A DNA stretch of 64,000 nucleotides from Cytophagales bacterium (GCA_965277185.1 CBDICC010000009.1:51087-115086); one strand, 5' to 3'; shown: positions 6,001-62,974, numbered from the stretch's first letter. Notes: generated by a model not told the origin, from the letters alone. A program made the numbers and translations.

Positions 6001-9000
6001 CATTTCCACCTGACCAAGTAACTCTGGTTGTGGTGTCAGAGAATGTATAGGCTCTTAGTGTAATGTCATCCGCATCTTTACATATTACTGTATCGACTGT
6101 CGTTACCGTAGGAACTGGAATTAAATTGACACGTAATGTGTCAAAATATCCTTTACACTGTCTATATGGATCCGCTGTTAATGTAAGTAAGAATGTTTCT
6201 GTAGTTATATCCACACCAGCAGGGGTATAATCGGTATTTGGTAGGATTGTGGAAGCAGGAACGGTATTGCCATCAAACATACCTCCACCGGCTGTAGTCC
6301 ACGTACCTGTATGCCCAGTAACACCATTGGTGTCAATACTTCCGATTAGATTAACTGCATTTCCAGGACTAGCACAAGCATTGGTGGCAGAAGCTGACAC
6401 AACTGGAGCTAGATATATACTGACATTCATGGTATCTGCAATCTCAGGACAGAGTGAACCGACCGTAGTAGTTAGAATTAGTTGGACACCACTAGAATCA
6501 ATATCATCCTGTGTTAAGGTATAACTTGCAGCCGTATCATTAACAGCAAAGGGTTCGGTAATTGGATTAACAAAGTTTCCATTGCCAGTAGTGGTCCATA
6601 GTACGGAAGTTACCGCTGTATTATGACCGGCATTTAGAGTAATCGTACCTGTATCACTACAAACAACTTGATCCGGACCAGCAGTTAACATAAATGGATC
6701 TGTATAATTAATGACGATTGTATCATAAATAATGGTACAAGTACCCGCATCTCTAGTTTCGGCTATAACCAAAACAGACTGGGTTGTTTTATCATTTGTT
6801 CCAAAATAATAATAGGTAGTATCGGCAAGTGAATCACTAAATGTACCATCACCTTTGGTTGACCATTCAATTCCACCTGCAATCGTATAATTAGCAGACA
6901 ATTGAACACTGTCATCGCTTGCACATAAAGCTGAATCTCCTATGTCTAAAGTTGGAGATGGAGTTAATGTGAGATTAAAGGTGTCACAATATACCTGACA
7001 TCTTCCGTTGCCAATATCCGCACAGAAAATATATTCTAAATTAGCGGTATCCCTATCAGCTTGAGAGAAGTACGTTTGAAATGTAATTGAACTGTCACCA
7101 TACGATGAATTAACGGAATCAGGGACGCCACTATAAGTCCAGTGTCCACTTGTAGCAACCGTAAGGTTAGAAGCTGATACAATGTACGATCCAATATCTG
7201 CACAATAGGTATCGGCAGGCGGTAGATCAAATGTTGGAACCGGAGTAATAATTAATGTCCGATCATCGGTATAAGTTTGACATCTCCCATTATTGATTGT
7301 AGCGACGGTGAGTAGTACCGTACCAACGGTATCATCTCCAATACCGGGAACGTAACAAGGGTCTAATGCAGAACTATCTACGAAGGTACCATCTCCGTTT
7401 GTTGTCCAAGCTACTCCACCAGGGACACTATTAACGGTGTCTCCAGCCAAACATACGGTGTCTTCATCTGCACATCGAGTGATATTAGCTCCCGCATAAA
7501 CTTCTGGAGCAGGAGTGATGTACGCAATAAATGAATCACAAACAGTTGGACATAATCCATTGTTTGCTGTACACCAATAAATAAGAGCAGAATCACTTAC
7601 AGCATCGACAGCAGATATCGTATAAGTGGTTGGCGTAGCAGAAGAATCAGCAAAAGGACCACCTCCACTAGAAATCCATTCCATCTGACCTGTGTAATTG
7701 GTTGTGTCAGAATCAATTCCAACTATAATCGTGTTTTCATCGATACAAACAATTTGAGTTGGACCGGCTTCCACAATTGGATCTGGTCTAATTTGTACTT
7801 GTATTGTGTCAAAAACATCTGCACATCCACCAGAACCTACGGTTTGTACGTAAACCTCAATGTTTCCAGGGACATCTGCTATATTTGGTGTAAAATATGT
7901 TGTGTCGGCCGCAGTTGTAGTAAATTCACTTCCTGCTCCTGTTCCATTGGTAGACCAAAGGACACCATTGGCATTTGTTCGAATGGCGATTAATTCAATT
8001 CCTGCTGCATCGAAACAAGCGGTAGCAGAACCAGCATTCACTGTTGGAAGCGGCGAGAATATAATCGACATAGTATCAGATAAAATAGCACAACCAGTTA
8101 ATGAGTCAGTAGTAGAGGCAATAACTTGAATAGTTCCAACAGCGGTATCAAGGGTGCTAGGTACATAAACCGAAGCAATAGATGTACTGTCATTTGCTTG
8201 CCAAGATCCAGTTCCTAATGCGCGCCAGATAATGCCTGTTGCATTGGTTATGGAACCAGCCATCGTAACTGAATTATCTGTTTTACATACGGTCTGGTCA
8301 GGTCCTGCTGTGATAGAAGGAGCTGGGTCCACGGTGATATTTACTATGTCTGAAACTGCATTACATAAACCATTATCTAGAGTAGTCAATGTCAATACAA
8401 TAATACCCGCAGAATCTGCTGTGAAATCAGATGTTAAGCTGTTCGGTAAAGCGATTGTTCCTTGTCCCGCTGTTGTCCAAATCGAATTTCCAGCTACGGT
8501 CATAGTTCCTGCCAATGTAGTTGCCGGTGCATCCGCACAGATTCGTTGATCCGGTCCTGCATAAACTGTAGGAGCTGGATTAATAGTAATGACTAATTGA
8601 TCCGTTACAGGATTACATGTACCAAAATCAGTAGAGGTCCAATCAAGCGTGACTGATCCATTTACATAATCCAATGAATCAAAGTGATAGGTTGAGTTAA
8701 TGCTTATACTATCCGGACTAAATGTTCCTCCGGTAGGGCTGCTCCAAACGCCTCCGCCTGCATTAGCAAAAGTTCCAGAGAGTTGAAGGAATCCAGAATC
8801 AGCACATATTGTATCAAATCCTCCTGCATCCATGATTGGAATAGGAGTTACGATTAACTGAACACTATCCTGGATCTCTTTACATGCTCCCACATTTATA
8901 TTCGTTAACGTTAACTTGATCGTGTCAGGAGTTGTAGGGCTAACGGTATTATGTGTGTAAGTGGTTCCCAAATCTGAACTGTCAGCAAAGACACCCGATA

Positions 9001-12000
9001 TATCGTCCGATGTCCAAATGCCATTTCCATAATTCACAGACCCAGTTAAAACGATATCTGCATCATCTCTACAAATAGTTTGATCTGGTCCAGCTTCCAT
9101 ACCTGGAGCCGGAGAGATATTTAAATCTAATTGCTCACTATAAGCATTACAAAGACCGTTACCAGTACTAGTTACGAAGAAACGAATGTCACCAATTAAG
9201 GTGTCTTGTGGATCTAAAATATATTCAAGATTATTTTGTGATGAATCAACCATGGTTCCGTGTCCGTTTGTAGTCCAAACTAGACCTGTTGCAAACTGTA
9301 CTAAAGCGCTAAAATTAACGGTATCAATATCAGCACATACGGTATCAAATGCAGGTGCAGTAATTACAGGGATCGGAGTAATGGTTAAATCCATACAATC
9401 CGAAACCAATGCACATAAACCATTACCGGTCGTTTGTATACAAAGCGTAAGAGGTTGATTGATTTGCATGGTATCGCTAGCAGAAGGAACAAACAACGTA
9501 TGCGTATCCGAAGGCATAAAGAACCCACTGTCATTTGATGATGTCCAATAACCGCCGGTTGCATTTACCACTGATCCTAATAAGTTATATCCTGACGTGT
9601 CCGCACATACAGTATCATCAGGACCTGCTAATGCAACAGGAACCGCTTGAAAAGAGATTAACATCGTATCGGTTTGAGGGACACATTGTCCTTCTAATCG
9701 GCTGGTTAGTATAACGGTAGCAAATCCAGAAGTTGAATCAGTTGCAGAACGGATGTAATCAGTTGCTAAATCTATATCATCAACAAATGTTCCTCCAGTT
9801 GGTAAAGTAGACCAAGTTCCACCGCCTGCGTATTGTACTGTCCCTGCAAGTAATATACTGTCACCAGTAGCACAGAGTGCTTGATCAGGACCGGCTCGAA
9901 CAATCACAGAAGGCGTGATGGTAAGCGTGAAAGTCCCAGAATCTGGATTACAAGTTCCGTTATCTGTAGTAACCCATTTAAAAACTACTATATTGTTAGT
10001 ATCATTCCCTGAGAATTGATAAATCGCGCCGTTCAAGTTGGTTTCGGTTCCAGCCATGAATGATCCTGGTCCGTTTTCGGTCCAGATCCCAGTTGTAGAG
10101 TTTTGCATAGTCGCTCCATTGATTGTAAAGCTTCCTGCATCTGCACAAAGAGTTGTGTCTGCTGGCACTGTAACTACAGGAGTAGGTAAAATAGTAAGCA
10201 ACATGGTATCAGCAATATTGTTACACTGTCCAGCTCCGGTGGTATTCAGATACATTTCCAATGTTAAATTACTGTCCACCGAAGTTGGATAATAATTAAT
10301 CAAACCTGTAGGTGAAGTGAATACTCCTCCCGCATCAAATACCGGCGGAGCACTAACAGAATTGGTAGTCCAAACACCTTGAGATGCAATTGTTATAGTT
10401 CCATTTAATCCATAAACTCCTTCATCATAACAAATGGTGTCGTCTGGTCCAGCATCAATCGTTGGAGCAGGAGTAATGGTTATGGTCATAGAATCTGTAG
10501 TTGGAGCACAAAGCCCGTTTCCAGTGGATGTTACATATACTTTTACAGAATCTGTTGTTCCAGGTACAGCAATATCACCAGCACACCAAGTATATACAGG
10601 AGTTAAAATATTTGCATTGTCAAATGCTCCAGATGGACCGTTACAACCACTTGTTGTAGTCCATGTTCCACCAGTAGCAGTAGTTACATTTCCAAAGAGT
10701 TGTAAAGTGTCTTGATCTGCACAAATGGTACGATCAATTCCTGCATCGATAACAACATTAGGGGTTAAAGTAACAACCATTGTATCACATTCTTGAGGGC
10801 AGAAAGTCTGGTTATTATTGCAAAGAACTAAGGATACAGTTCCATCTGTGTAGTTGTCATTGCTCATGCAATATCTATTTGGAGTTACCGTTCCAAATCC
10901 AAAATCAAATGAACCGACGACTTGTCCCAATAGTACATTCCAATAACCTGTACCACCGGCATTGGTAATACTCCCATTTAAATCTATACAAGCAATATCT
11001 GAACAAAGGGTGGTATCATTACCGGCAAACACAATTGGTCCAGGCAATATGGAAATCGTATCCTGATCACAGAATGAAGGACAAGAACCGATAGCACTAG
11101 TACACCAAGTTACTTCTACAAAACCATCTGTTTCGTTTGCTGCACTTGGAACAATATCAGTAACCTGAGCATTTGCGTCAACGATGCTTTGAACACCTTG
11201 TATAGTAGTCCAAGCTCCTATTCCAGACCCACTTGCCGAAATGGTTACAGGATAATCATTTGTACAAATCGTGTTGGGTGCAGAAACAATGGCTGTGGGT
11301 GCCCCTTGGAATGTAATTTGAATGCTGTCACAGTATATTCCACAACCTGAAAAGATTGGGTCTGTACCACAATATACTAGGTAAATTGATCCTCCAAGAC
11401 CAGCTCCGATTGTATCATTTGCAATGTCGATGTTATATTGGTTTCCAGTAAAGGTTCCATTTGCACCAGAGCCAAGAGACCAAGTCCCTTCATTTATATG
11501 TGTTGAAGTAGGAGATAAAGGGATGGTAGTAGCATCGGTACATACTGTAACATCTCCTCCTGCATTTACAGTTGGTGTAGGCATTACAATAAATGAATCG
11601 GTAGCACTTACATCATTGCAATAAGCTCCTCCCGTAGTATTTATCTTTACAAAATATTCTACTGGTATCGTATCTAAAGTAGTTGGATCTGGATTAAAAG
11701 TACTTATTGTATCATTGTTAGGAGAAAATACATCGCCCGGATTATTTCCAACCCAAGAAAAACCATAGGTTATTCCATCTCTAGGATCTGTTGTCAATGA
11801 TGCATTTAAGGCCATAGGTAATGCGTCGGTACAAATTGAATCGGCGACGGTAGTGGATATAATTGGTGCTTGTAAAATTTCAAGTCTTACCGTATCGGCA
11901 ACAGCCAAACAATTACCAGTATCTGTAGTCGTAGCAATAAATTCTACGAAACCATTTGTTATTTCCGTAGCAGTAGGAGTATAACAAACCGTATCGCTTG

Positions 12001-15000
12001 TACTGGATCCTCCTATAAAGGATCCGGCTACATCAAAGTTTGACCAAATCATAGTGGTAGATAAGGTCATTGATGATGCTAAACAAAGTTGGGTGTTATT
12101 TGAACAAGAAGTATCCGCGGGTCCTGCGAAAATTGTAGGACTAGGCGTATAATAAATCGTAGTTGAATCGAGGACAGCATTACAGTTACCGTTGCCAGTA
12201 GAGGTTAGATACATGCGAACACTATCTCCAGGAGTAGGTTGTCCATTGGTCCAACAAACAGAAGTGCTTAATGAATCTGGATCAACGATCGTAACATCTG
12301 CTGGTCTGTTCGTAGTCCATGTTGTTCCGGTTGCATTGGCAACGGAGCCAGTTACAATTCCGCATGGATTATTGGTACAAACATCAATTGTATTTCCTGC
12401 ATCTACAATAGGGGATGGCTCGAAATAGATATTCATGGTATCCTGAATTTCAAGACACAATCCAGAATTAGTTGTGGATAGAATTAAACTCATGGTTGTA
12501 CCGCCAACGCCGTATTCCGTGGCATTAGGTTGATATAGTCCAGCTTCGTTTGTACTATCTACTAACGGAGCAAAACTCCCACTAAAGTTACGCCATACGA
12601 CTCCACCGGAAACACCTGGATCATATGAACCTGCCAATGTTACATTTGGATTATTTACACAAGAAGTGTCATCCAATCCAGCATTTACTGTTGGGGCAGG
12701 AGTTACATAAATTTTCATTGAATCACATACCTCTAGGCAATTATTCAAAGCTGCACCATCGGTTGAACAAAGATTTAAGGTGACCGAATCAGTGGTAGTA
12801 GGTGTATAGCCAACACCAGTTAACGTGGTGGAGTTTGGAAGGAAAATTCCTGTCCCACCTGACCAAATTCCAGAAGAGGCTCCATCGCCTACACTACCAT
12901 TTAAAGTTACGGGGCGATTATTATCACATACGGTATCACTCGGACCTGCATCAACCAATGGAGCAGGAGTAGCTGAAACACAAACGGTGTCAGCAACAGA
13001 AGAACAAAATGTCGAAACATCTGACACTCTAAATTCTGCACACCAAGTGCTATCCGCCGGAGGTATTGGTAATGCTTGACCTGCCGCTACGGCAATTTGA
13101 GATGCGTCTGGGGAGTAAGTAGTACTTAAGGCATTACTTGAACCAAAAGATCCTTGTGTACCATATATATTTGTCCATTGAAAACTCAAAGCTCCACCTG
13201 CTCCACCACTTGTTGTATCTCCGGTAAAAGTTACATCTGGATTATTTGAGCAAACTATTTGATCGATTCCAACGGTAGCAGTAGGACTTGGTAGCACTGT
13301 AACTTGCATGCTATCGCATACGACCGGACAGGCGTCAAACAATGCCAATCGATAAATGCAAATTTCAAGTGTAAACGTATCTGTAAGAGTAGGAGTGCTG
13401 GTGAAACTTAATGTTTCATCAATTATTCCGGTAACATCCGTAAACGTACCTGCTGCAGGAGAAATCGTCCAAATTGGCTCTTGAATCTCACTAGTAATTC
13501 CATAATTACTATCGGCATTCATCACTAAATCGCTAGGGTTGTTTTCACATATTTGTTGATCTACACCAGCTTCCACAGTTGGAAGGGTAACAATCGTAAT
13601 ATTTGCCGTATCTGGAACAACCAAGCAATTTCCTACATTGGTTGGTGTCAAGATAAGAGAGACTTGTTGAAGCTGAGTAGGAAAGGAAGGTGTTTCTTCT
13701 GAACCAGGACAGTACTGAGATGTCAAATCTGTGATGTCTGTAATTACAGCGTTCACATCATTAACAGAAGCACCATTAACCACCACATTCCATTCTGTAC
13801 CGCTTCCTGGGAAATCACCTTGATTCGTAAATGCACCATTTAAATTTGCCAAGCAGTTTCCTGCACAAAGTAGAGAATAATCGAGCGGACCACAGCCATC
13901 ACATGCATCCACCAATGGTTCAGGTGTTACAGTTACTAGCAATGAGTCACATTCTTGGATACAACCTACTCCTGGATTGGGAACACAGAAGGCAACATCA
14001 TAAGTTGTATTAGATGTCATTCCAGCTGGATTATATGTAACTGTATAGCTACTTGAATCATTGGATTGCCATGAACCCGGCATATTCGTTGTCCAAAATA
14101 CGGATTGTCCGGTAGGCGTAGTAGTCCCTGTTAATGAGAAATCTGGATTGTTGAAACACACATTGAAATCTTCAGGAGCTGTGGCCGTTGCGGCAGTATT
14201 AATGATCAAAACCATGGTGTCCGCTTCCAGGGTGCAATACAAACCATTATTGGTAGATTCCCAAATTAGTGTGGCACTACCTGTAGAGGAATCGGTCGTT
14301 GTAGGAGTATACATTGTTGTAGCAAGTATACGGTCAGTAAATCCACTATGATCACCATTCATATTAGACCATTGTCCCGATCCGGTAGAAGACGTTGCGG
14401 CCAAGATGACATTGTAATTATTGTTACAAGTAGTGTCATCCGGTCCGGCACTAACAATTGGTGAAGGAATAACGATGATTTCAATGCTATCTACAGCTGG
14501 ATTACATAATGTAGATCCACCAGTACTGGTCCAGTACAACATAAGAGAACCACCTACTGTATCTCCAGGAGACAAGGTATATTGAGCGATTGAGTCTTGG
14601 GCCAATGTTGAAAACATGCCTGTTCCACCTGACCAAATAGCTCCAGTTGTGTTGGAATAGGTACCAGCTAGTTGAACAGTAAGATCATTTGCACAAACCG
14701 TATCTGACGGAGGTCCTGCATCTACGATTGGTTCTGGAGAGTATGTAATAATCAAAGTGTCAGCTACCGCATCACAACCTCGATTATCAGTTGTTCTAGC
14801 GATAAGTGTGACGGATCCAGCGGTAACTTCTGCCGCAGAAGGACAATAAGTTGTATTCAAAGTACCGATAGAATCAGTAGAGTCATTGACTGAAAATGTT
14901 CCTGTAAGTGGAGCATCTAACCAAATTATTCCACCTGCAATTTCAACAGAAGCGGCTAATTGAACGCAGCTATCATTCGCACAGGCAGAGGTGTCATTTC

Positions 15001-16291
15001 CTACATCAATGGCAATTGGAGAAGGATAAACAATGACTGTACTTGTATCTTGATTGGAACTACAACCCTGTTGGTCCAATACTTCCACCCTATATTCACC
15101 TGCTCCTGTTCCATAAACATCGATGCTGTCATCAAGATCTATGCCTGTGTAAATTGGAATAGAATCATTGCCATCTTTGTACCAATTATAGGTGTAGGGC
15201 GGATCACCATTTTGACCTTCTGCAAAGAGTGTAACGAATGATGAACCAAAACAGATTGCAGGATCCTTAGGGGTGACAAGAACCTCTAAATTACTTACAA
15301 ATCGAATCATTGTAGTGTCACAAATAGTAATGTTGTCACATCCTCCCAATGGTTCTCCGCAAATTTGAAATATTACAGAATCAGGAAGCCAAGTAGGAGG
15401 GTTAAGAGCAATAGAAAGAGGTAGTTCTACAAATAAAGTGTCAATTAGAGCACCGTTAGTAGGATTTCCAAATTCATCAAAAAGCCATGTGGCTACAGAG
15501 TCCGCGATGGTTGCACTATCAGGTCCTGCAGGAATTAAGGCTGTCCATTGAATTGAGTTAGGGTCATAACCTGTCCCCCAAACTTTACCAGAGCAAGCTT
15601 CCGAAACTACATCTGTTGGAGATATTTCAGGATCAGGAATGGAACGAATCGTAAAATGATTTGGGTTAGCTCCTGGTTTACAGAATGAGAGGTAAAAGGG
15701 TCCAGATCCAGTTAAACATATTTCTGATCCGTCGGCAGGATATTCCGCACTACAATCTGCAGGCGAATTAGTCGGATTCGAAAAACGATATCCAAGAATA
15801 CCAGAGCCCGGTGTTGAACCGCTTACAATATCAAGAGCCATCCCTCCGGCCGCTGAATCGAGATATAAAATAATCCCTAAGCAGGATTCGTTGTCGTTGT
15901 TTTGTGTGTTTGCATTACAACAAGTTTCACAAGGGGCATTTTTATCTCCGTGTCTACGTACACCTGGTCCGTCCACTGGATTATTAATGTCTAAGATATC
16001 GATTCCTCCAATGGATGGATCATCCATATCAATCCCCACAAAGTCTCTGGTGTCCCATAAACTATCGGCTGTTCCTCTTAAATCAACAACAAAAACTGGT
16101 ACATTATCATGACACGGATGCTCATTTTGATCAGTAACTAAAGTTGGGTCTTCTACGATAGGTAGGGTAGCACAAGGTGGAGAACCAGCAAAGGAATTAT
16201 TAACATTGAAAAATACCATGAAAGCTACAATCAAAGTAGTGATATGTTTTTTGCTTAATTGTTTCAATGTAAATTGTAATGATATAACCAT
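5..16291 (-). CDS. Giant (5428 aa) secreted cell-surface adhesin-like protein with T9SS type B C-terminal sorting domain (SprB-class cargo)
   Basis: One uninterrupted ORF with ATG at 16291-16289 and TAA at 7-5. The N-terminus looks like a signal peptide (KKHITTLIVAFMVFFNVNNSFA). It is followed by a ~300-aa unique Cys-rich region, then a long tandem-module array. The C-terminus (...FKLTIFNRWGEIIFYS..VWDGTYLG..MPSGLYPW...) fits the gliding-motility-associated/T9SS type B CTD pattern (TIGR04131-like, recalled from memory). Confidence 0.9.
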   Translation of the reverse strand: MVISLQFTLKQLSKKHITTLIVAFMVFFNVNNSFAGSPPCATLPIVEDPTLVTDQNEHPCHDNVPVFVVDLRGTADSLWDTRDFVGIDMDDPSIGGIDILDINNPVDGPGVRRHGDKNAPCETCCNANTQNNDNESCLGIILYLDSAAGGMALDIVSGSTPGSGILGYRFSNPTNSPADCSAEYPADGSEICLTGSGPFYLSFCKPGANPNHFTIRSIPDPEISPTDVVSEACSGKVWGTGYDPNSIQWTALIPAGPDSATIADSVATWLFDEFGNPTNGALIDTLFVELPLSIALNPPTWLPDSVIFQICGEPLGGCDNITICDTTMIRFVSNLEVLVTPKDPAICFGSSFVTLFAEGQNGDPPYTYNWYKDGNDSIPIYTGIDLDDSIDVYGTGAGEYRVEVLDQQGCSSNQDTSTVIVYPSPIAIDVGNDTSACANDSCVQLAASVEIAGGIIWLDAPLTGTFSVNDSTDSIGTLNTTYCPSAAEVTAGSVTLIARTTDNRGCDAVADTLIITYSPEPIVDAGPPSDTVCANDLTVQLAGTYSNTTGAIWSGGTGMFSTLAQDSIAQYTLSPGDTVGGSLMLYWTSTGGSTLCNPAVDSIEIIVIPSPIVSAGPDDTTCNNNYNVILAATSSTGSGQWSNMNGDHSGFTDRILATTMYTPTTTDSSTGSATLIWESTNNGLYCTLEADTMVLIINTAATATAPEDFNVCFNNPDFSLTGTTTPTGQSVFWTTNMPGSWQSNDSSSYTVTYNPAGMTSNTTYDVAFCVPNPGVGCIQECDSLLVTVTPEPLVDACDGCGPLDYSLLCAGNCLANLNGAFTNQGDFPGSGTEWNVVVNGASVNDVNAVITDITDLTSQYCPGSEETPSFPTQLQQVSLILTPTNVGNCLVVPDTANITIVTLPTVEAGVDQQICENNPSDLVMNADSNYGITSEIQEPIWTISPAAGTFTDVTGIIDETLSFTSTPTLTDTFTLEICIYRLALFDACPVVCDSMQVTVLPSPTATVGIDQIVCSNNPDVTFTGDTTSGGAGGALSFQWTNIYGTQGSFGSSNALSTTYSPDASQIAVAAGQALPIPPADSTWCAEFRVSDVSTFCSSVADTVCVSATPAPLVDAGPSDTVCDNNRPVTLNGSVGDGASSGIWSGGTGIFLPNSTTLTGVGYTPTTTDSVTLNLCSTDGAALNNCLEVCDSMKIYVTPAPTVNAGLDDTSCVNNPNVTLAGSYDPGVSGGVVWRNFSGSFAPLVDSTNEAGLYQPNATEYGVGGTTMSLILSTTNSGLCLEIQDTMNIYFEPSPIVDAGNTIDVCTNNPCGIVTGSVANATGTTWTTNRPADVTIVDPDSLSTSVCWTNGQPTPGDSVRMYLTSTGNGNCNAVLDSTTIYYTPSPTIFAGPADTSCSNNTQLCLASSMTLSTTMIWSNFDVAGSFIGGSSTSDTVCYTPTATEITNGFVEFIATTTDTGNCLAVADTVRLEILQAPIISTTVADSICTDALPMALNASLTTDPRDGITYGFSWVGNNPGDVFSPNNDTISTFNPDPTTLDTIPVEYFVKINTTGGAYCNDVSATDSFIVMPTPTVNAGGDVTVCTDATTIPLSPTSTHINEGTWSLGSGANGTFTGNQYNIDIANDTIGAGLGGSIYLVYCGTDPIFSGCGIYCDSIQITFQGAPTAIVSAPNTICTNDYPVTISASGSGIGAWTTIQGVQSIVDANAQVTDIVPSAANETDGFVEVTWCTSAIGSCPSFCDQDTISILPGPIVFAGNDTTLCSDIACIDLNGSITNAGGTGYWNVLLGQVVGSFDFGFGTVTPNRYCMSNDNYTDGTVSLVLCNNNQTFCPQECDTMVVTLTPNVVIDAGIDRTICADQDTLQLFGNVTTATGGTWTTTSGCNGPSGAFDNANILTPVYTWCAGDIAVPGTTDSVKVYVTSTGNGLCAPTTDSMTITITPAPTIDAGPDDTICYDEGVYGLNGTITIASQGVWTTNSVSAPPVFDAGGVFTSPTGLINYYPTSVDSNLTLEMYLNTTGAGQCNNIADTMLLTILPTPVVTVPADTTLCADAGSFTINGATMQNSTTGIWTENGPGSFMAGTETNLNGAIYQFSGNDTNNIVVFKWVTTDNGTCNPDSGTFTLTITPSVIVRAGPDQALCATGDSILLAGTVQYAGGGTWSTLPTGGTFVDDIDLATDYIRSATDSTSGFATVILTSRLEGQCVPQTDTMLISFQAVPVALAGPDDTVCADTSGYNLLGSVVNATGGYWTSSNDSGFFMPSDTHTLFVPSASDTMQINQPLTLCIQTTGNGLCALVSDCMDLTITPIPVITAPAFDTVCADIDTVNFSALVQFATGLVWTTNGHGTMVDSSQNNLEYILDPQDTLIGDIRFFVTSTGNGLCNAYSEQLDLNISPAPGMEAGPDQTICRDDADIVLTGSVNYGNGIWTSDDISGVFADSSDLGTTYTHNTVSPTTPDTIKLTLTNINVGACKEIQDSVQLIVTPIPIMDAGGFDTICADSGFLQLSGTFANAGGGVWSSPTGGTFSPDSISINSTYHFDSLDYVNGSVTLDWTSTDFGTCNPVTDQLVITINPAPTVYAGPDQRICADAPATTLAGTMTVAGNSIWTTAGQGTIALPNSLTSDFTADSAGIIVLTLTTLDNGLCNAVSDIVNITVDPAPSITAGPDQTVCKTDNSVTMAGSITNATGIIWRALGTGSWQANDSTSIASVYVPSTLDTAVGTIQVIASTTDSLTGCAILSDTMSIIFSPLPTVNAGSATACFDAAGIELIAIRTNANGVLWSTNGTGAGSEFTTTAADTTYFTPNIADVPGNIEVYVQTVGSGGCADVFDTIQVQIRPDPIVEAGPTQIVCIDENTIIVGIDSDTTNYTGQMEWISSGGGPFADSSATPTTYTISAVDAVSDSALIYWCTANNGLCPTVCDSFIAYITPAPEVYAGANITRCADEDTVCLAGDTVNSVPGGVAWTTNGDGTFVDSSALDPCYVPGIGDDTVGTVLLTVATINNGRCQTYTDDRTLIITPVPTFDLPPADTYCADIGSYIVSASNLTVATSGHWTYSGVPDSVNSSYGDSSITFQTYFSQADRDTANLEYIFCADIGNGRCQVYCDTFNLTLTPSPTLDIGDSALCASDDSVQLSANYTIAGGIEWSTKGDGTFSDSLADTTYYYFGTNDKTTQSVLVIAETRDAGTCTIIYDTIVINYTDPFMLTAGPDQVVCSDTGTITLNAGHNTAVTSVLWTTTGNGNFVNPITEPFAVNDTAASYTLTQDDIDSSGVQLILTTTVGSLCPEIADTMNVSIYLAPVVSASATNACASPGNAVNLIGSIDTNGVTGHTGTWTTAGGGMFDGNTVPASTILPNTDYTPAGVDITTETFLLTLTADPYRQCKGYFDTLRVNLIPVPTVTTVDTVICKDADDITLRAYTFSDTTTRVTWSGGNGTFSVGDIGVGIDSIYKSDSTFMTYTFDPADTTGIDSLILYVTNAGGSCSPVTDSIVIRFNPVPTVFATPAAQCAVFDTLSLVGTITNAGGGTWSHSGSGSFAFGNTVLINEYQPVPADTVGTADSVVIKLCTRLNAGCKTYCDSSTIYFSPPPVIFAGNDTTVCADVLSIPLMSVSVDTTASAGAVWTNSIGGTFTPNDSVIFNPIFNVPDTIRTGGVDTTATLILTTYGSGFCPEISDTMEITITHPPIVTSADTITVCADTSAIPISIITNDVPDSVFWEIISGAGHITDVNADTTTYNFVQDDIDSGYAIVRYSSYDFAGCVPVVDTIYLEITPIPTVDITVDEICIDNPVVTLTSLVTHDGSSTPDDAVWTSSTQGTGGFTDGSGNTDFYTLDSASGDTALATVKLFLTTTNNGLCQAYVDSVILNIIPAPFANAGPNQGICGDQNTVCLNAVVTTDSIRWSSSGTGTFVDSLSDTTCYTLSSADSANGVVLTITTTFDNRGCNPGVDSVIVAITNPPIVNAGIPDTACYEQAPGVPGFISLSGSIDFDIAGAGVFWSGGTGTFVSLSSPGLGNTDTIVEYYFDQVDSCGDLRLYITSTGTGNCNAVTDSVDVFVRCVPTVTDNADTTVCADIDSVQVSVLVQNATGVSWTTSGQGMFRDTSLFTTHYIPDPQDIADSLIVLTPSTTGTEECLTYSESFNMYFTDAPTVDAGLPQNVCSCNGDSIFLTTANTTIANAFAWTSDGAGTFVDSSVLNATYVPACPGDSSITINMILTASDTVTGCKTYIDTVQITFEPAVVVSAGGPTDTVCADIGTIQLNGSVLVATGGLWSTLNGDPNQFNPIPPAQDLVMYTLTDADTARGTVTFVLESTGGGNCLTIYDTIEVIITPIPVVTGGFDDTICADAVIYGLTGGVTVTGTGAWTSSGDGTWAPDSLTLITDYILGTIDGTVLSGTTNLINFVLVSTNNGHCNPVQDVVQLTVTEVPIVFAGNDRSICQDKTSISFVSPIKDSYIIGATSSGNWTSDGDGTFVDALGAIDTSFSGMIEYDLGPDDLLRGDTSGFITFVLESTNNGSCNPVLDTMMVQILPRPTVTVDSTLNLLNDTLTICADQDTVSFIGTVTNSPTQLWSATSPGVCAQCGFSRTDATALNPLYTIDSTDINVTDLITDYVGITLETIGNSNGCDEVNDALILEITPRPRIAITAPDTVCADVGPINVEGSVLIATGGIWTSSDLTGSFGNVTNLVTTYTLGTDDIGFGLATLVLESTGHGQCNQVFETHNIVVTPRPAIDAGPDMVICGDFGNFTISADSVNDIVKAVQWSTIEGNNANFSNRFALHPTYTLDPSDIPDPTSKTSNFLTFILESTNVGDCQNILDTMIVEIKPTPIVTLSAGDICADLNGLEVNATYCNATGIIWSSNDGIFGNVADTSTQFTPDASVKPGTAIVTVCSDGNGVCQAVCDSIGIIITDLPNPDAGPSQLICRHAGTQLNGIDSLGTGDVLTWYDENGLVLTTGASHSVNTVPNPTFFAFGILDVNGCERIDTMYVEVIDPPTLDMDSLYCFDDNLSISAGVDVNTIPDPPFQGTWQWYYEGAPAPGLSTDTVYQVIQSGVHSVQWLSGSCFISDTTLVAPRPIVEGIDVSICEFGAYNLEATTGFITYAWAEVGGLGQTGNGNPFNASGIGNDSIDQVFIVTITDSLGCQNDDSVYLYELNPPTLDVFPDTTCDGFAVDLYGVPQNDTVLGNTDSAIYTWTYGGNILKQDSTWSGFLAPDSAHKWTSRLDSGWYKLTYGIEQCIVTDSAYLPFHALPETFAQDSAVFCAESDVFVTLDGGTSSGSPTGHIWYDEDKAELGITSQFIDVTVEMTYYVTIIDSNGCMAEDSVFVEERCPPRCHLPTAFSPDGTACDPTCSEDDNIICNDNCFYVFCKHQKDFKLTIFNRWGEIIFYSENKNNVWDGTYLGKDMPSGLYPWTMEYNALEEEYDRPKYVSGKILIIR
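8..331 (-). other. T9SS type B C-terminal sorting domain (last 108 aa of the giant protein)
   Basis: The sequence is CPPRCHLPTAFSPDG[TACDPTCSEDDNIIC]NDNCFYVFCKHQKDFKLTIFNRWGEIIFYSENKNNVWDGTYLGKDMPSGLYPWTMEY...ILIIR. The core F(T/S)P(N/D)GD..ND...IFNRWG..W.G motifs are present. A Cys-rich insertion sits between the PDG and ND elements. Confidence 0.75.
332..1585 (-). repeat. Second module type: five ~84-aa Ig-like modules with an aromatic W/Y-x-W/Y-x-x-G motif (aa 4903-5320)
   Basis: The modules contain TWYDENG, WQWYYEG, YAWAEVGG, YTWTYGG and HIWYDED, each with paired Cys (..GC..D). One related module (YTYNWYKDGN, aa ~334-422, nt ~15026-15292) precedes the main array, so this type brackets it. 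Confidence 0.6.
1586..15025 (-). repeat. Protein-level tandem array: ~48 diverged modules of roughly 80-100 aa (aa 423-4902)
   Basis: I counted recurring anchors of the form P-x-P-x-V-x-AG-x-D-x-x-C, for example PAPTVYAGPDQRIC, PAPSITAGPDQTVC and PEPIVDAGPPSDTVC. Each is followed by L.G......G..W.T.G.G.F, Y.P...D...G.v.L.l.T and G.C....D.....I.P. Each unit has two conserved Cys. The units are diverged at the DNA level. The count and boundaries are approximate. Confidence 0.8.
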
Positions 16292-46638: not shown

Positions 46639-49254
46639 ATGGCTGAAGGGAATATTATCAACATTAATATTGAAGATGAAATGAAAGGAGCTTACATCGA
46701 TTATTCGATGTCGGTTATTGTTTCTAGGGCGTTACCTGATGTGCGAGATGGTATGAAACCAGTTCACCGGAGAGTACTCTTCGGAATGCATGAATTGGGA
46801 GTTCAGCATAATAAAGCACATAAAAAATCTGCCAGAATTGTTGGGGAGGTTTTAGGTAAGTATCACCCTCATGGAGATACATCTGTTTATGATGCGATGG
46901 TGCGTATGGCTCAAGAATGGTCTTTACGATACCCAATGGTGGATGGTCAAGGAAACTTTGGTTCCATTGATGGAGATTCACCTGCAGCAATGCGATATAC
47001 GGAAGCGAGGCTCAAGCGAATTGCGGAGGAAATGCTTTCGGATATTGATAAGAAGACCGTTGATTTTCAACCAAACTTTGATGATTCGTTGAAAGAACCT
47101 TCTGTTTTACCTGGTAAAGTTCCAAACTTATTGTTGAATGGAGCATCAGGAATTGCAGTAGGTATGGCAACAAATATGGCACCACACAATCTTACTGAGA
47201 TTGTAAACGGGACTATGGCCTATATTGACAATAGAGATATTACAGTTGCGGAATTAATGGAGCATATTACTGCACCAGATTTTCCAACTGGAGGTACGAT
47301 TTACGGTTATGAAGGGGTTAAGTCTGCTTTTGAAACTGGAAAAGGTCGTGTAGTAGTCCGCGCAAAATCAACCATAGAGGAGACTGATTCAGGAGCAAGA
47401 GAGCAGATTATTGTAACGGAGATTCCGTTCATGGTTAATAAAGGAACCATGTTGGAAAAGACAGCTGCATTAATTAATGAGGGGAAAATTGAAGGTATTT
47501 CGGATCTTAGAGATGAATCGGATCGAAATGGAATGCGAATTGTATATGAATTGAAAAGAGATGCCATGCCTAATGTGGTATTAAATAATCTTTTTAAGCA
47601 TACAGCACTTCAGACTTCGTTTAGTGTAAATAACATTGCCTTGGTAAAAGGGCGACCTCAGTTATTAAATCTAAAAGATTTGATCATTTATTTTGTGGAA
47701 CATCGCCATGAAGTAATTGTTAGAAGAACAGAGTATGAATTAGCGGAAGCAGAGAAAAGAGCACATATTCTTGAAGGTTTAATTATAGCGTCAGATAATA
47801 TTGACGAAGTAATAAGATTGATTAGAGCTTCGAAAAGTCCGGATGAAGCACGTGAAACGTTAATGAAAACGTTTGACTTGTCTGAAATTCAATCCAGAGC
47901 GATTGTAGAGATGCGTCTACGTTCATTGACTGGACTGGAACAAGAGAAATTGCGTAAGGAGTACGAGGAGATCATGGCATTAATTGCGGATTTGAAAGAT
48001 ATTCTTGCAAACGAATCCAGAAGAATGGACATCATCAAAGAGGAATTAAACGAGATGTTGGAGCGATACGGAGATAAACGTCGTACCGACATTGAATTTA
48101 GTTCAGCTGAATTTGCTATTGAGGATATGATTCCTGATGAAGAGATGGTTATAGCTATTTCTAACGAAGGATATATTAAACGAACTGCGTTAACAGAATA
48201 TAGAGAACAAGGACGTGGAGGAAGAGGTTCAAAAGGAGCTAAAACAAAAGAAACAGATTATATCGAGCATTTATTTGTTGCAACGACGCACAATTACTTA
48301 CTGATATTTACAGAAAAAGGAAGGTTGTTCTGGAAACGTGTTTATGAAATTCCTGAAGGAAGTAAAACACATAAAGGAAGACCAATTCAGAATTTAATTA
48401 ACATTGAATCGGATGATCGAATCCGTGCTGTAATTAATGTGTTGAATCTGAAAGATGAAGATTACATAAATAATCATCACATCGTATTCTGTACGGAGAA
48501 AGGGGTGATTAAGAAAACATTACTTGAGCAATATTCTCGACCAAGAACGAATGGTATTAATGCAATTACCATCCGTGAAGGAGATCAATTAATGGACGTT
48601 AAGTTGACCAATGGAAATAGTAATATTGTGATCGGATTGCGATCTGGTAGAGCAATTAGATTCCCAGAGGAAAAAGTACGTTCCATGGGAAGAAATGCAG
48701 CTGGTGTACGAGGTGTAACGCTTAAAGATGACGATGATAAAGTAGTAGGATTAGTTTGTGTAGATAAAGAAAATAAGGAGCAAACCATTCTTGTAGTATC
48801 TGAAAAAGGATACGGAAAACGAACATTGTTGGACGATCCAGAAACTGGTGACGCAATTTATAGAATCACTAACCGTGGAGGTAAGGGAGTTAAAACAATC
48901 AACGTTACCGATAAAACAGGTAAAATGGTTGCTTTATTGGCCGTATCAGATGAAGATGGATTAATGATTATTAATAAGTCTGGTATTACCATTCGACTAA
49001 GTATTGAATCCATGAGAATAATGGGTAGAGCAACGCAAGGAGTTCGATTAATCAAATTAGGAGATAAGGACGAAATTACTTCGGTAACTAAGGTTGTAGA
49101 GGAAAAAAGTGAAGAAGAAGTAGATGAGGAAAATGCTGAAAATGTAGAAAACTCAGAAACTGGTACGGAAAATGCAGATGATTCAAAAGAAGTTTCTAAT
49201 TCAGATGAAGAAGAGGCTGCTGAAAATACCGAGGAGGAATCAGAAGAAGAATAA
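46639..49254 (+). CDS. gyrA: DNA gyrase subunit A
   Basis: 871 aa. The motifs [27 protein letters not shown] and [17 protein letters not shown] plus the active-site [10 protein letters not shown] are classic GyrA. The C-terminal beta-pinwheel ends in an acidic tail. Confidence 0.97.
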
Positions 49255-49340: not shown

Positions 49341-50471
49341 ATGAAAAAGATCTTGCTGACACTGGTAGCTACAGTTCTACTAACTTTTGTGAGTATTGCC
49401 CAAAACACAGCTGTTACCAATGCTTATATTTATTATAAGGATGAAAAGGATTATGAAAAGGCTAGAGAGAATATCGATAAAGCCATTAATCATCCTAAAA
49501 CATCAATTAAATCGAAAACTTGGACCTACCGAGGTTTAATTTATGAGAAATTAGCTGCTGCAACAACTTCAGGAGAGTTGTTGGTCACAGCTGCCGATTC
49601 ACATAAGAAGAGCATTGAATTAAATGAAAATAAAGGACAGGTTCAATTGTCTCAAAAGAATCTGAAAAATATTTATAATGATGCACTAAACTGGGCTTTT
49701 AAAAAATATGAAGCAAAGGATTTAGAGGTTGCGTTGAGTATTTATGAGGCAGGAATCAAAATAAATCCTCAAGATACTATTGCTTATTTATATGCAAGTT
49801 CTGTCTTGATCGATCTTAAAAATTATGATCGTCTTGTTACTCTAAACAAGGAACTTATTGCTACCGGTTTTGCAAAGGAAAAGGTGTATTTCAATGTGTT
49901 GATTGGTCAGTTAAGTAAAAATACAAAGGAGGACAGTATTGCTGCGTTACAAACTTTGGAAGAAGGAATGACGGCAAATCCAAATGCAACTAAGTTAGCA
50001 AAAACGCAAATTGATATTCAAATTGCATTGGGAAGAAAGGATGAAGCTCTTAAAAGCATTAATTCTAGATTGGATAGTGATCCTAATAATCCATTGTTAT
50101 GGTGTTTGAAGGGGACTTTATTAAAAGGAGAGGAAGCAGAACGTAGTTTTAAGAAGTCTTACGAAAACATTAGTTCATCTACCAAGCCTAACATGGTGGA
50201 GTTTATTAACTTTTCAATTGGAAACATTTACTATAACAAAGCGGCCGATCTTTACAATAAAGTAAATAACATGGGACTTAGTGATTATCAGAAAAATGGT
50301 AAGAAAATTGAGGCGGATGCAAAGGTTATTATGTCAAAATCAATTCCTTATTTTGAAAAGGCACATGAGGTAAATCCTAAAGCTACGGATGTAATTCAGT
50401 CATTGATTACGGCTTATTTAAAAGTTGGACGTCAGGAGGATTCGGATCGAATGTCTGCTAAGCTGAAATAG
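49341..50471 (+). CDS. Secreted TPR-like repeat protein (hypothetical)
   Basis: 376 aa with signal peptide ILLTLVATVLLTFVSIAQ. Helical-repeat composition (e.g. YEKARENIDKAINHP..., ALSIYEAGIKINPQD). Confidence 0.6.
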   Translation: MKKILLTLVATVLLTFVSIAQNTAVTNAYIYYKDEKDYEKARENIDKAINHPKTSIKSKTWTYRGLIYEKLAAATTSGELLVTAADSHKKSIELNENKGQVQLSQKNLKNIYNDALNWAFKKYEAKDLEVALSIYEAGIKINPQDTIAYLYASSVLIDLKNYDRLVTLNKELIATGFAKEKVYFNVLIGQLSKNTKEDSIAALQTLEEGMTANPNATKLAKTQIDIQIALGRKDEALKSINSRLDSDPNNPLLWCLKGTLLKGEEAERSFKKSYENISSSTKPNMVEFINFSIGNIYYNKAADLYNKVNNMGLSDYQKNGKKIEADAKVIMSKSIPYFEKAHEVNPKATDVIQSLITAYLKVGRQEDSDRMSAKLK

Positions 50472-50501: not shown

Positions 50502-50540
50502 AAACCGTTTTGAATTTGATATTCAAAACGGTTTTTTTTT
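50502..50540 (+). terminator. Rho-independent terminator after 49341-50471
   Basis: 14-bp perfect stem AAACCGTTTTGAAT / ATTCAAAACGGTTT with a 5-nt loop, followed by a T-run (50532-50540). Confidence 0.85.
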
Positions 50541-50660
50541 GTGGTTTTTTCGGTTTCTCGGATTCTCAGTTTTTCAGTTTCTCAGTTTTTCGGTTCTTCA
50601 GTTCTTCAGTTTCTCAGTTTTTCAGTTCTTCCGTTCCTCAGTTCTTCGGTTTTTAATTAT

Positions 50661-50703
50661 TCTACCTTAACTATCAACGGAATAACTGATCAACTGAATA
50701 ACT
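50661..50703 (+). repeat. 43-bp module copy 1 (TCTACCTTAACTATCAACGGAATAACTGATCAACTGAATAACT)
   Basis: Read directly. It is preceded by GGTTTTTAATTAT and followed by CG+T8. Confidence 0.95.
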
Positions 50704-50743
50704 CGTTTTTTTTCGGTTCTTTAGTTCTTCGGTTTTTAATTAT

Positions 50744-50786
50744 TCTACCTTAACTATCAACGGAATAACTGATCAACTGAATAACT
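50744..50786 (+). repeat. 43-bp module copy 2 (identical to copy 1)
   Basis: Read directly. Same flanks as copy 1 (GGTTTTTAATTAT upstream, CG+T7 downstream), so copies 1 and 2 form an ~83-bp duplication. Confidence 0.95.
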
Positions 50787-50930
50787 CGTTTTTTTCAGTT
50801 CTTCGGTTTCTCGGTTCTTCAGTTTCTCGGATTCTCGGATTCTCGGTTTTTCGGTTCTTCAGTTCTTCGGTTTCTCGGATTCTCGGTTCTTCAGTTCTTC
50901 GGATTCTCAGTTCTTCGGTTTCTCAGTTCT

Positions 50931-50973
50931 TCTACCTTAACTATCAACGGAATAACTGATCAACTGAATAACT
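50931..50973 (+). repeat. 43-bp module copy 3 (identical core)
   Basis: Read directly. It is fused directly to the last octamer (AGTTCTTC|TACC...) and followed by T11. Confidence 0.95.
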
Positions 50974-51094
50974 TTTTTTTTTTTAGTTCCTCGGTTTCTC
51001 AGTTTCTCAGTTTCTCAGTTCTTCGGTTTTTCGGTTTTTCGGTTCTTCCGTTCCTCAGTTCTTCGGTTCTTCAGTTCTTCAGTTTCTCAGTTCT

Positions 51095-51137
51095 TCTACC
51101 TTAACTATCAACGGAATAACTGATCAACTGAATAACT
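51095..51137 (+). repeat. 43-bp module copy 4 (identical core)
   Basis: Read directly. Followed by CG+T9. Confidence 0.95.
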
Positions 51138-51178
51138 CGTTTTTTTTTAGTTCTTCGGTTCTTCCGTTCCTCAGTTCT

Positions 51179-51221
51179 TCTACCTTAACTATCAACTGAA
51201 TAACTGATCAACTGAATAACT
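51179..51221 (+). repeat. 43-bp module copy 5 (one substitution, CAACGG->CAACTG)
   Basis: Read directly. Followed by T14. Confidence 0.95.
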
Positions 51222-51291
51222 TTTTTTTTTTTTTTCAGTTCCTCGGTTCTTTAGTTTTTCGGAAAGTATGCTCATGATGTAGTGACTAGTT

Positions 51292-52362
51292 TTATGCGTA
51301 TTTGGATTCAAATTGCTGCATTACATCGACTAAGGCGAGTACGCTTGATTTAGTCATCGCATTGTACATGGAAGCTCTGAACCCGCCTATACTTCGATGC
51401 CCTTTAATTCCAGAAATCATGTCATCCTCACAGAGTTCAAGGAATTTAGCTTCTAAGGTTGGATCGTTTAACTGGAACGTGGCGTTCATAACAGATCGAT
51501 CACTTGTTTTTACAATTCCGGAGAAAAGCGCATTTCTGTCGACTTCTTTATATAAGATGGTCGCCTTTTCTGAATTTCTTTTAGCAATTGCATCCAGTCC
51601 GCCTTCGTTTTTAAGCCAAGTTAAGGTTTGCAACATGGCATAAATAGCAAAAGTAGGGGGTGTGTTAAACATAGACCCTTTATCTATGTAATTTTGGTAA
51701 TCGAGCATGGATGGAATGGCGCGATTCGTTTTTCCTAATAAATCTTTTCGAACGATAACCAAGGTTATACCCGATGGACCAATATTCTTTTGTGCTCCGG
51801 CATAAATTAATGCAAATTTTGACACATCGATTTTTCGACTAAGAATATCGGAAGACATATCCGCAACCACTGGAATCGGTGATTCTGGAAATTCGTTTAA
51901 CTGTGTTCCGTAAATTGTATTATTGGTCGTTAAATGAAAATAATTAGCGTCCGTTGGAATGGTATAATCGGTAGGTATATGCTTGTAATTATCTTCCTTG
52001 GAAGACGCGACAATTTTTGTATCTCCAAATATTTGAGCTTCCTTGATTGCTTTTGAGGCCCAAGTACCTGTATCTAAATAGCAGGTAGATCCTCCTTCTT
52101 TTTGAAGGTTATATGGGATCATACAAAATTGCATACTGGCGCCACCTTGAATAAATAGCACTTCATGCGTGTCTGGAATCTCAAGCAGTTCAATTAATAA
52201 ATTTCTTGTTTGATTTAAGATATTTACAAATTCGGGACTACGATGTGAAATTTCCAAAAGCGATAATCCCATATCATTCAATTCCAATACCGCTTTAGCA
52301 CATTGTTGGAAAGTGAATTCTGGTAAAATAGAAGGTCCCGCAGAAAAATTATGTTTTTTCAT
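51292..52362 (-). CDS. serC: Phosphoserine aminotransferase
   Basis: MKKHNFSAGPSILP... is the typical SerC N-terminus. The ORF is open to a TTG at 52371, but the ATG at 52362 fits better. Other motifs are GGASMQF and ADMSSDILS...YAGAQKNIGPSG (PLP lysine region). Confidence 0.9.
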   Translation of the reverse strand: MKKHNFSAGPSILPEFTFQQCAKAVLELNDMGLSLLEISHRSPEFVNILNQTRNLLIELLEIPDTHEVLFIQGGASMQFCMIPYNLQKEGGSTCYLDTGTWASKAIKEAQIFGDTKIVASSKEDNYKHIPTDYTIPTDANYFHLTTNNTIYGTQLNEFPESPIPVVADMSSDILSRKIDVSKFALIYAGAQKNIGPSGITLVIVRKDLLGKTNRAIPSMLDYQNYIDKGSMFNTPPTFAIYAMLQTLTWLKNEGGLDAIAKRNSEKATILYKEVDRNALFSGIVKTSDRSVMNATFQLNDPTLEAKFLELCEDDMISGIKGHRSIGGFRASMYNAMTKSSVLALVDVMQQFESKYA

Positions 52363-61484: not shown

Positions 61485-62158
61485 ACAGTCAGATAGCTAT
61501 CGCTATAGCATTAATATATAATTGAGGTAAAGATAATAGGAAAGTCTTTTGAATAAAGAGATTGCTTACAGGAATTTTTGTTTGGAGATATAGAATTATA
61601 GATGTAACCCCTCGGATGTTAATCAGGCAACCGTTGGAAAAGAGTTCTTAATCTGCTGGAATTAGGTAAACATTTAAAGCTTATATGTTTTAGAGGGAGA
61701 TATTTGGTTGAATATTAATCGTGACAGTATTGCATCGTACAGGTCGAATTTAATTAAGTTTTTGTTGTTCTAAGGTAGTAGAGCTTCGTTCTACAAAAGG
61801 CAAATTGATTTTTGGTGTATTGATGTCAGAAAGTAGTTATTAATAGATATAACTAAGGGAATCAAGTTTGTAGAGACTATAATTAAATATTAGTCAATAA
61901 AGAGTTAAAGCATTATTAATCAGAACAATATTTAGAAAACGCATTTTTCAGCATGAAAAATAACTATTGTTTTATTAACTTTTTTAAAAGTTAGAGTTTA
62001 TTATATCTGTTGTTTATATAAGGTATTTAATTAGATAGTTATGTATAAACGGAAGAAACAAGATTTGAAAAAGAAGAAATAAGATATTGAAAACAGAGGA
62101 AACAAGGTTTCTAAAATGGAAGATTTAAGATTTGAATCAAATTGGCTATATTTCCGAT

Positions 62159-62974
62159 ATGAAAGAAATTGGGATAAAAATAACTGCTTCAATAGTCGAA
62201 AACAAGGAACTTTCTTCCTTATCTAAATTAATACTTGGATTAGGTTTTACGTACAGTCAAATGGCAGGTTACAATATGCTAACCAATAAAGAAATTGCAG
62301 AGTTGTTCTCAATAAATGAAAATACCATTGGTAAACACAGAAAGACTTTGCTTGATAAAGGTTATGAAAGAAACGAAAAAGGCAAGTATTATCTCACAGA
62401 CAAGTATAAAGAATTTAAACCAATACATAAGAGAGATATTATAATTCCATCAGAAGTTTATAAGAAGAGAATTAATGTCGGAGCAAAATTACTTTGGGGA
62501 GAATATAATTCGCTTTCAAACAAAGGTCAAAATGAAGCATTTGCAGCAAGAGATTATTATGCTGCACGACTGAACTGTAGCGTTGATAGTATTACAAATT
62601 GGTTTATGGAGTTAGTTGATAACGAATTATTATCCGATTATGGTTTGTTCGGGGGCCGTGGAGCAAGACAAAGACGTGTTAAAACGGTTGATTTTTCTAA
62701 AGGTAGTAATTCAATGATTCCAGTTGCCTTAGAGAGAAGGAAAGAGATTTGGAATGAATATATAGGAGACAAAAGCTATTTAAAAAGAAATGTTAATACC
62801 GAAAAACAGGCTTGGGAATATGCTAAGGACCTACGTATGAATATTATAGCGGGTGAAAATGAAAGAGAGATTGTTAGTTCTTTATTAGCCGATATTGATA
62901 CAAAAATGAAAGGAACTGACATTCTTGATAAGCTTAGAGAAATAATTCAAGAAGCACTCAAAGGAATCATTTAG
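62159..62974 (+). CDS. DNA-binding protein with two HTH/wHTH-like modules (element regulator or replication-initiator-like)
   Basis: The ORF is open from a TTG at 62132; the ATG is at 62159. Module 1 is LTNKEIAELFSINENTIGKHRKTLLDKGY and module 2 is ARDYYAARLNCSVDSITNWFMELVDNELL. The C-terminal part is helical. Confidence 0.55.
   Translation: MKEIGIKITASIVENKELSSLSKLILGLGFTYSQMAGYNMLTNKEIAELFSINENTIGKHRKTLLDKGYERNEKGKYYLTDKYKEFKPIHKRDIIIPSEVYKKRINVGAKLLWGEYNSLSNKGQNEAFAARDYYAARLNCSVDSITNWFMELVDNELLSDYGLFGGRGARQRRVKTVDFSKGSNSMIPVALERRKEIWNEYIGDKSYLKRNVNTEKQAWEYAKDLRMNIIAGENEREIVSSLLADIDTKMKGTDILDKLREIIQEALKGII

Follow-up and report, generated by a model that had tools for sequence, protein, structure and literature searches.

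Among modular intergenic repeats, the BIMEs of E. coli (clusters of REP sequences) and the pneumococcal BOX elements form hairpins in tandem and vary in the number of their internal modules. Such families often lie at the 3' ends of convergent genes, and a genome holds tens to hundreds of dispersed copies. A different class is that of the long simple sequence repeats (LSSR) of Mrazek et al. (2007), with units of 1 to 11 nt, as summarised in PMC4679880.

Closer in sequence to the locus described here are the TAACTGA heptamers that MacGregor (2015) reported as direct repeats in Beggiatoaceae, Cyanobacteria and five Bacteroidetes (PMC4679880). These occur as many sets per genome, mostly in the forward orientation and just upstream of start codons, with some between stop codons (PMC4679880). 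In Gramella forsetii and Aequorivita sublithincola they form long intergenic arrays that the closest relatives lack despite identical gene neighbourhoods, and contigs often end inside arrays of this type (PMC4679880). Their function is unknown, and S1, Csp or CsrA-like proteins have been proposed as binders (PMC4679880).

The array that we analysed occupies positions 50543-51262 of the window, by which we mean the whole 64,000-nucleotide stretch of DNA under study, and it sits in an 820-bp gap that separates a convergent pair of housekeeping genes and is bounded on both sides by stop codons, rather than ahead of a start codon. An earlier reading made from the sequence alone knew of no described element class to which it could belong, but long simple-sequence repeats and TAACTGA-type arrays have both been described (PMC4679880), and the array is an unusual instance of the known bacterial simple-sequence repeats rather than a new kind of element. 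We file it under the LSSR, whereas its relation to the TAACTGA repeats is one of resemblance and not of membership. It is built of a tandem 8-nt unit (four period-8 tracts, 51 clean units), and its length is far beyond chance expectation: the consensus RGTTYYTC has 42 matches on the plus strand within the 820-bp gap, as against 19 on both strands (12 plus, 7 minus) of the other 63 kb. With the LSSR it shares short head-to-tail units, an intergenic position, sporadic phylogenetic occurrence with presence in one genome but not in its relative, and a presumed origin by slippage. It differs from them in its second-level units of 83-187 bp and in a fixed inverted run that makes hairpins, and its roughly 54 octamer copies are at the long end for bacteria.

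The likeness to the TAACTGA repeats lies in the AACTGA core (module units TAACTGAT and CAACTGAA; AACYGARR in the reverse complement of the blocks), in the long intergenic arrangement of variant units lacking in closest relatives despite conserved neighbourhoods, and in a location between stop codons that some TAACTGA sets share. The Gramella and Aequorivita arrays, however, are likened to this one by description and not by architecture. Here the period is 8 and not 7, TAACTGA itself occurs only in the modules, as TAACTGAT, and there is a single locus in 64 kb, which does not precede a start codon. In general outline the array is similar to BIMEs and BOX elements, as a modular, tandem, hairpin-forming intergenic repeat, but it has no second copy in 63 kb.

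Layout of the array and its flanks

The array is genuine according to both Tandem Repeats Finder and an in-register parse. The former returned four period-8 tracts (50546-50654, 50803-50928, 50999-51096 and 51149-51180) and two higher-order periods, one of 83 bp at 50629-50816 with 91% matches and one of 164 bp at 50821-51176 with 87%. The latter resolved 51 clean RGTTYYTC octamers and three that straddle a module boundary, reading AGTTCT/TC, in which the final two bases double as the first two of the module. Counted in this way, the blocks hold 14, 3, 16+1, 13+1, 3+1 and 3 units. The sequence-only reading was therefore upheld in its unit, block sizes, modules, T-runs and strand bias; its figure of about 55 octamers stands for the array, with the count now given as 51 clean units plus 3 straddling. 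Its statement that the repeat fills the whole 820-bp gap is correct for 50543-51262 but not for the first 70 nt, which hold the terminator of the upstream gene, or for the last 29 nt, which are unique.

Across the 51 clean units, position 1 is A in 24, G in 24 and C in 3; positions 2, 4 and 7 are G, T and T without exception (51/51 each); position 3 is T in 46 and A in 5; position 5 is divided between T (25) and C (26), as is position 6 (T 30, C 21); and position 8 is C in 47. Variation is thus clustered at three positions, and five are near-invariant. The blocks are separated by a 43-bp module, TACCTTAACTATCAACKGAATAACTGATCAACTGAATAACT, that is present five times (Table 1). Four copies are identical and the fifth carries one mismatch, G to T at 51197. 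The modules are spaced by 40, 144, 121 and 41 bp of octamer repeat, and the T-runs on their 3' sides measure 8, 7, 11, 9 and 14 nt, with CG preceding three of them. Copy number varies at three levels, namely in the T-runs (7-14 nt), the blocks (3-17 units) and the higher-order units (83-187 bp). The composition of the 720 nt (T 336, C 157, A 123, G 104) shows a strong strand bias, with an AT skew down to -0.48.

Table 1. Positions of the array units, their predicted hairpins and the flanking features, counted from the first nucleotide of the window.
Feature	Position	Strand	Description
gyrA	46639-49254	+	Pfam GyrA
TPR-repeat lipoprotein-like gene	49341-50471	+	Pfam TPR; downstream of gyrA
Canonical intrinsic terminator of TPR gene	50502-50540	+	perfect 14-bp stem, 5-nt loop, T9
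Higher-order unit A	50543-50703	+	14 octamers (50543-50660, ending GGTTTTTAATTAT) and module 1 (50661-50703)
Predicted hairpin of unit A	50608-50703	+	-28.2 kcal/mol, z -6.4
Higher-order unit B, 83 bp	50704-50786	+	CG and T8, 3 octamers, module 2 (50744-50786)
Predicted hairpin of unit B	50712-50781	+	-17.5 kcal/mol
Higher-order unit C, 187 bp	50787-50973	+	CG and T7, 17 octamers, module 3 (50931-50973)
Predicted hairpin of unit C	50909-50973	+	-17.3 kcal/mol, in centroid structure
Higher-order unit D, 164 bp	50974-51137	+	T11, 14 octamers, module 4 (51095-51137)
Predicted hairpin of unit D	51057-51137	+	-22.2 kcal/mol
Higher-order unit E, 84 bp	51138-51221	+	CG and T9, 4 octamers, module 5 (51179-51221; G>T at 51197)
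Predicted hairpin of unit E	51149-51221	+	-16.9 kcal/mol
Truncated unit F	51222-51262	+	T14 and 3 octamers, without module; then 29 unique nt
SerC-like class-V aminotransferase gene (serC)	51292-52362	-	Pfam Aminotran_5; convergent with TPR gene; stop codon 51292-51294

A further neighbour was identified by Pfam as a biotin carboxylase gene (accC). The terminator of the TPR gene, whose 14 pairs include 4 GC (-16.3 kcal/mol, z -4.6), was the best terminator call in 40 kb of the window's sequence. When the gap was scanned for canonical terminators, with at least 3 GC pairs and a loop of 3-8 nt, the hairpins of the array failed and only 50502-50534 was flagged. The minus strand reads the same stem and then UUUAAAUAAAAAUU, and serC, too, therefore has this as its sole terminator-like site. 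In the stretch that separates the stop codon of serC from the array, terminator scans found nothing, and transcription of serC therefore probably passes through the entire array; judged from the positions of these sites, it probably continues to the hairpin at 50534-50502.

Two other features of the window were recorded. A single ORF of 5428 aa fills its first quarter (5-16291, minus strand), with a G+C content of about 0.40-0.42 that is clearly above the 0.31-0.37 of the rest. At 62047-62136, four imperfect tandem copies of a purine-rich 23-nt unit (AAACAGAAGAAACAAGATTTGA, 71% matches) lie directly upstream of, and overlap the start of, an ORF at 62132-62974 and close a gene-free stretch of 1.7 kb.

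The module as inverted octamers, and its predicted folding

The module is itself made of octamers of the family AACYGAnn, some 4.5 copies of them, which run opposite to the blocks. Its reverse complement reads AGTTATTC AGTTGATC AGTTATTC CGTTGATA, and in these units G2, T3, T4, T7 and C8 are as in the block matrix, the differences being confined to positions 5-6. A search with AACNGANNAACNGANNAACNGA, in which three AACNGA cores are set in phase, gave five matches on the plus strand, in the modules, and 26 on the minus strand, in the blocks. The entire array is one 8-nt family in two orientations, with a core of TCRGTT (AACYGA on the other strand) and two variable bases. It follows that the claim of a single orientation for all units is not correct, and the array is less odd once the module is seen as inverted octamer.

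The modules had also been said to have no hairpin and hence not to be terminators. A module is, however, 75-82% complementary to any 28-nt stretch of a block, and the overall complementarity of some 80% between the two orientations lets each higher-order unit fold into a long, interrupted hairpin. Hairpins were predicted in all five units, at -17 to -28 kcal/mol, and are built of 6-7-bp helices with small internal loops between them. Four of the five extend to the module's final base, which leaves 0-2 nt to the T-run; the exception is the one at 50712-50781, which stops 5 nt inside the module. Each T-run exceeds the length of at least 5 that was sought for a U-tract after a stem. Since the hairpin ends beside the T-run, each unit is, on the plus strand, shaped like an intrinsic terminator.

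The block windows distal to a module pair with it no worse than the proximal ones, and in part better (82% vs 75%), and the complementarity looks generic rather than tuned. The change at 51197, the one mutation seen among the modules, costs a C-G pair that could form with the in-register CCGTT unit. The idea that folding might favour one strand, and so point to an RNA, was rejected, given that the two strands of the array fold with equal stability.

Searches within and beyond the window

Several explanations of the array in terms of known functional sequence were tried. The Bacteroidota -7 motif TAnnTTTG was found on neither strand of the array, even in its relaxed form TAnnTTnG, and one weak sigma-70-like match lies outside it; internal promoters were accordingly rejected, and the suggestion that the array is a source of small transcripts ending at the T-runs found no backing. 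Against Rfam 15 the best matches had E values of 0.84-5, far below the gathering scores. The claim that the array is non-coding was borne out: a period of 8 is no multiple of a codon, and a translated query of 85 aa matched no protein at E<=10 among 5.8 billion sequences. On the minus strand all frames are closed, and on the plus strand the frames are broken at the modules, their openness elsewhere being a by-product of T-richness.

The array failed a test for CRISPR in that its 43-bp repeats are spaced by the same octamer repeat and not by unique spacers, in a neighbourhood made up of gyrA, the TPR gene, serC and accC. Triplex or H-DNA was set aside because the longest pyrimidine runs outside the T-runs are 7-9 nt and the octamer has 2 purines in 8. 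A replication terminus or origin was rejected as well: GC skew is negative only over two minus-strand genes and positive again from 54 kb, so that the dip is a gene-strand effect.

No other copy of the module (allowing up to 3 mismatches, and with blastn-short and nhmmer) or of octamer dimers was found in the remaining 63 kb, which agrees, within the 64-kb window, with the view that this is not a REP-like high-copy repeat. Plasmid and phage collections held no similar array. The 24-nt module core, searched against 596 Gb of genomes and a metagenome set, was found in only two unrelated places, both of them short runs of (Y)AACTGA(N) octamers in 5' regions. Tandem AACYGARR triplets, counted as octamers only, occur at 23 loci in 2.9 million viral contigs, as against 17, 21 and 20 for three scrambled cores; these counts give no sign of a preference for the AACYGA core in these contigs, which are viral and not bacterial genomes.

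In a Bacteroidales MAG (JAEEON010000032.1, 7746-7798) some 5.5 tandem octamers, CAACTGAT CAACTGAC CAACTGAA TAACTGAT CAACTGAA TAACT, run up to the ATG of a gene that begins MSLETKIMADIKAAML; the sequence recurs in three further records, and its placement is that reported for the TAACTGA heptamers, but with a period of 8 nt. About 11 tandem octamers (TAACTGAA / AAACTGAA) stand a few bases before an ATG at around 530-650 of the viral contig IMGVR_UViG_2751185931_000002. In IMGVR_UViG_3300029374_000171, runs of (AACTGAGG)x4-5 lie in opposite orientation at 1574-1595 (minus) and 1726-1747 (plus), flanking an AT-rich palindromic stretch of the (TATATA) type, of about 130 bp, that has the look of an origin or of a divergent control region. 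Two viral contigs with GAAGAACT runs (L008 and L029) were set aside, as these are dispersed, operator-like CTGAAGAC motifs and a different phenomenon.

Among homologues of the TPR protein, the next relative is 48% identical and is followed by Hymenobacter at about 37%, and the source organism therefore belongs to a poorly sampled lineage of Bacteroidota. Its assignment to the Flavobacteriia was not established, Hymenobacter supplying the nearest named homologues. The relative at 48%, GCA_020627945.1, is the only one found and keeps the order gyrA-TPR-...-serC-accC, with identities of 88% for GyrA, 82% for AccC and 67% for SerC. Its syntenic site holds no tandem repeat, so that at this distance the position of the array is not conserved. 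What the relative has there is a gene for a 409-aa protein between two copies of an ordinary terminator.

The two terminator copies (JAHDFW010000007.1, 11197-11228 and 12579-12609) are near-identical over about 35 nt, with the hairpin ATGTAAAACCGATCTGGAAACAGGTCGGTTTTTTT, and the protein encoded between them, in the spacer that separates the TPR gene from serC, has a signal-peptide-like N-terminus and no Pfam match on record. Judged by this arrangement, the gene seems to have been inserted, with the terminator either duplicated in the process or serving as the target. That the array is a remnant of this gene was considered and rejected: tblastn gave no match to the protein anywhere in the window, and at the nucleotide level the similarity of its locus to the window is limited to T-runs and CGGTTTTT. 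The occurrence of TCTTCAGTTTTAATTATT by the relative's serC and of GGTTTTTAATTATT in blocks 1-2 was taken as chance; the two are not positionally equivalent, since in the relative the stretch codes for the C-terminus of SerC.

Origin and possible roles of the array

On balance, we lean to the view that the array is a lineage-specific, hyper-expanded octanucleotide repeat with higher-order structure, tolerated in the spacer between convergent genes. Its growth would have involved slipped-strand mispairing in both octamer and T-run, a single inverted duplication that gave rise to the module, and unequal recombination or duplication of whole units of T-run, block and module. Given that hairpin folding is what the array predictably does, its only predictable activity would be structural. 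On the folding models, the hairpins could at most be weak, redundant, terminator-like elements on the plus strand behind the TPR terminator, and the array would add a structured extension of about 790 nt to the serC transcript. We found no sign of selection on structure, and we do not think that the array has a dedicated sequence-specific function.

Two observations, the uniformity of the modules and the pattern of the octamers, speak against this view. The module copies differ at 4 of 430 compared positions and the blocks at 63 of 529, the compared pairs not being independent of one another. Constraint or gene conversion, and not a recent origin, could account for such uniformity, and near-invariant octamer positions, together with a core kept in the inverted module, are the pattern expected of a recognition motif. 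Both can also be explained by recent duplication or gene conversion and by slippage shuffling. For the octamers, some four mutation events at the variable sites, with slippage shuffling, would give the same three-position pattern as selection. Still, the uniform modules and the invariant octamer positions keep the recognition-motif reading alive.

In its general form, which we consider rather improbable, that reading makes the array, by analogy with the TAACTGA repeats, a platform for a sequence-specific nucleic-acid-binding factor that would recognise the AACYGA / TCRGTT core, in repeats of the form (GAAGAACU)n or (AGUUCUUC)n. The platform could be the DNA or the purine-rich 3' extension of serC, (GARRAACY)n, the latter as a decoy or sponge of the kind that has been proposed, and never shown, for TAACTGA. 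The hexamer core is conserved and its 2-nt spacer variable in both orientations, the 8-nt spacing is fixed across 54 units, the core is that of the TAACTGA repeats with their proposed S1, Csp or CsrA-like binders (PMC4679880), and the short (Y)AACTGA(N) runs of the Bacteroidales MAG and of one viral contig abut start codons. The array itself, however, lies between stop codons, at one locus in 64 kb and at none in the relative, the core in tandem is no commoner than scrambled cores among the viral contigs, and no binding factor is known, even for TAACTGA. The narrower proposal, again by analogy, that the octamers are sites for a single-strand nucleic-acid-binding factor, and that the roughly 54 phased sites carried by serC form a high-capacity decoy or sponge, appears very doubtful. 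A different kind of selection, and one that we regard as unlikely, would have made the five hairpin and U-tract units a plus-strand backup terminator or insulator behind the TPR terminator, which would block read-through from the gyrA-TPR operon and hence antisense RNA across serC. All five units fold, four of them directly before U-runs of 7-14, they point uniformly at serC, the modules and the T-run junction are near-invariant, and like an intrinsic terminator they stand downstream of a gene. In contrast to such terminators, their stems (n=5) are long, AU-rich and interrupted every 6-7 bp, with a weak base in the form of a 4-bp AACU/AGUU helix, and none passes the canonical scan; a strong canonical terminator already lies upstream, the equally stable hairpins of the minus strand are followed by no U-run, and in the relative a single ordinary terminator per gene end suffices.

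The remaining readings concern the assembly and mobile DNA. It is quite improbable that the repeat exists but owes its copy numbers or layout to creation or distortion in a short-read metagenome assembly. The source protein is on one 261-kb contig without close relatives, five exact 43-bp repeats with an 8-bp periodicity are hard for short reads, and contigs often end within such arrays, as MacGregor noted (PMC4679880). This array, on the other hand, is internal to a long contig with unique sequence and intact genes on both sides, and its blocks keep distinct, non-collapsed unit orders and different junctions (ATTAT vs AGTTCT/TC), which is unlike the usual product of collapse or chimeric joining. 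Tandem imperfect hairpins in the space between convergent genes would also suit a cluster of a dispersed mobile, REP or BIME-like hairpin element, or a locally amplified MITE, and the same spacer in the relative took up a foreign gene, so that the site is insertion-prone. We nevertheless give this reading hardly any probability: neither module nor octamer dimer recurs in the remaining 63 kb, the units have no terminal inverted repeats or target duplications, and the module core met only unrelated short runs in the genomes and metagenome set.

If the array is the tolerated, lineage-specific expansion that we favour, it would be a clear example of how a spacer grows, in which a repeat expands, an inverted copy arises and whole units duplicate. 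It would also be a hairpin-rich minisatellite of 720 bp that shifts the terminator of a gene by almost 800 nt, and would serve well as a hypervariable marker of strains. The locus would carry greater weight only if its conserved core and invariant modules bind a factor or terminate transcription; as a sponge, it would amount to a titration RNA of the CsrB kind, in a phylum without CsrA. As a repeat expansion, it would add a data point on the unsolved recurrence of AACTGA-type repeats in Bacteroidota and Cyanobacteria.
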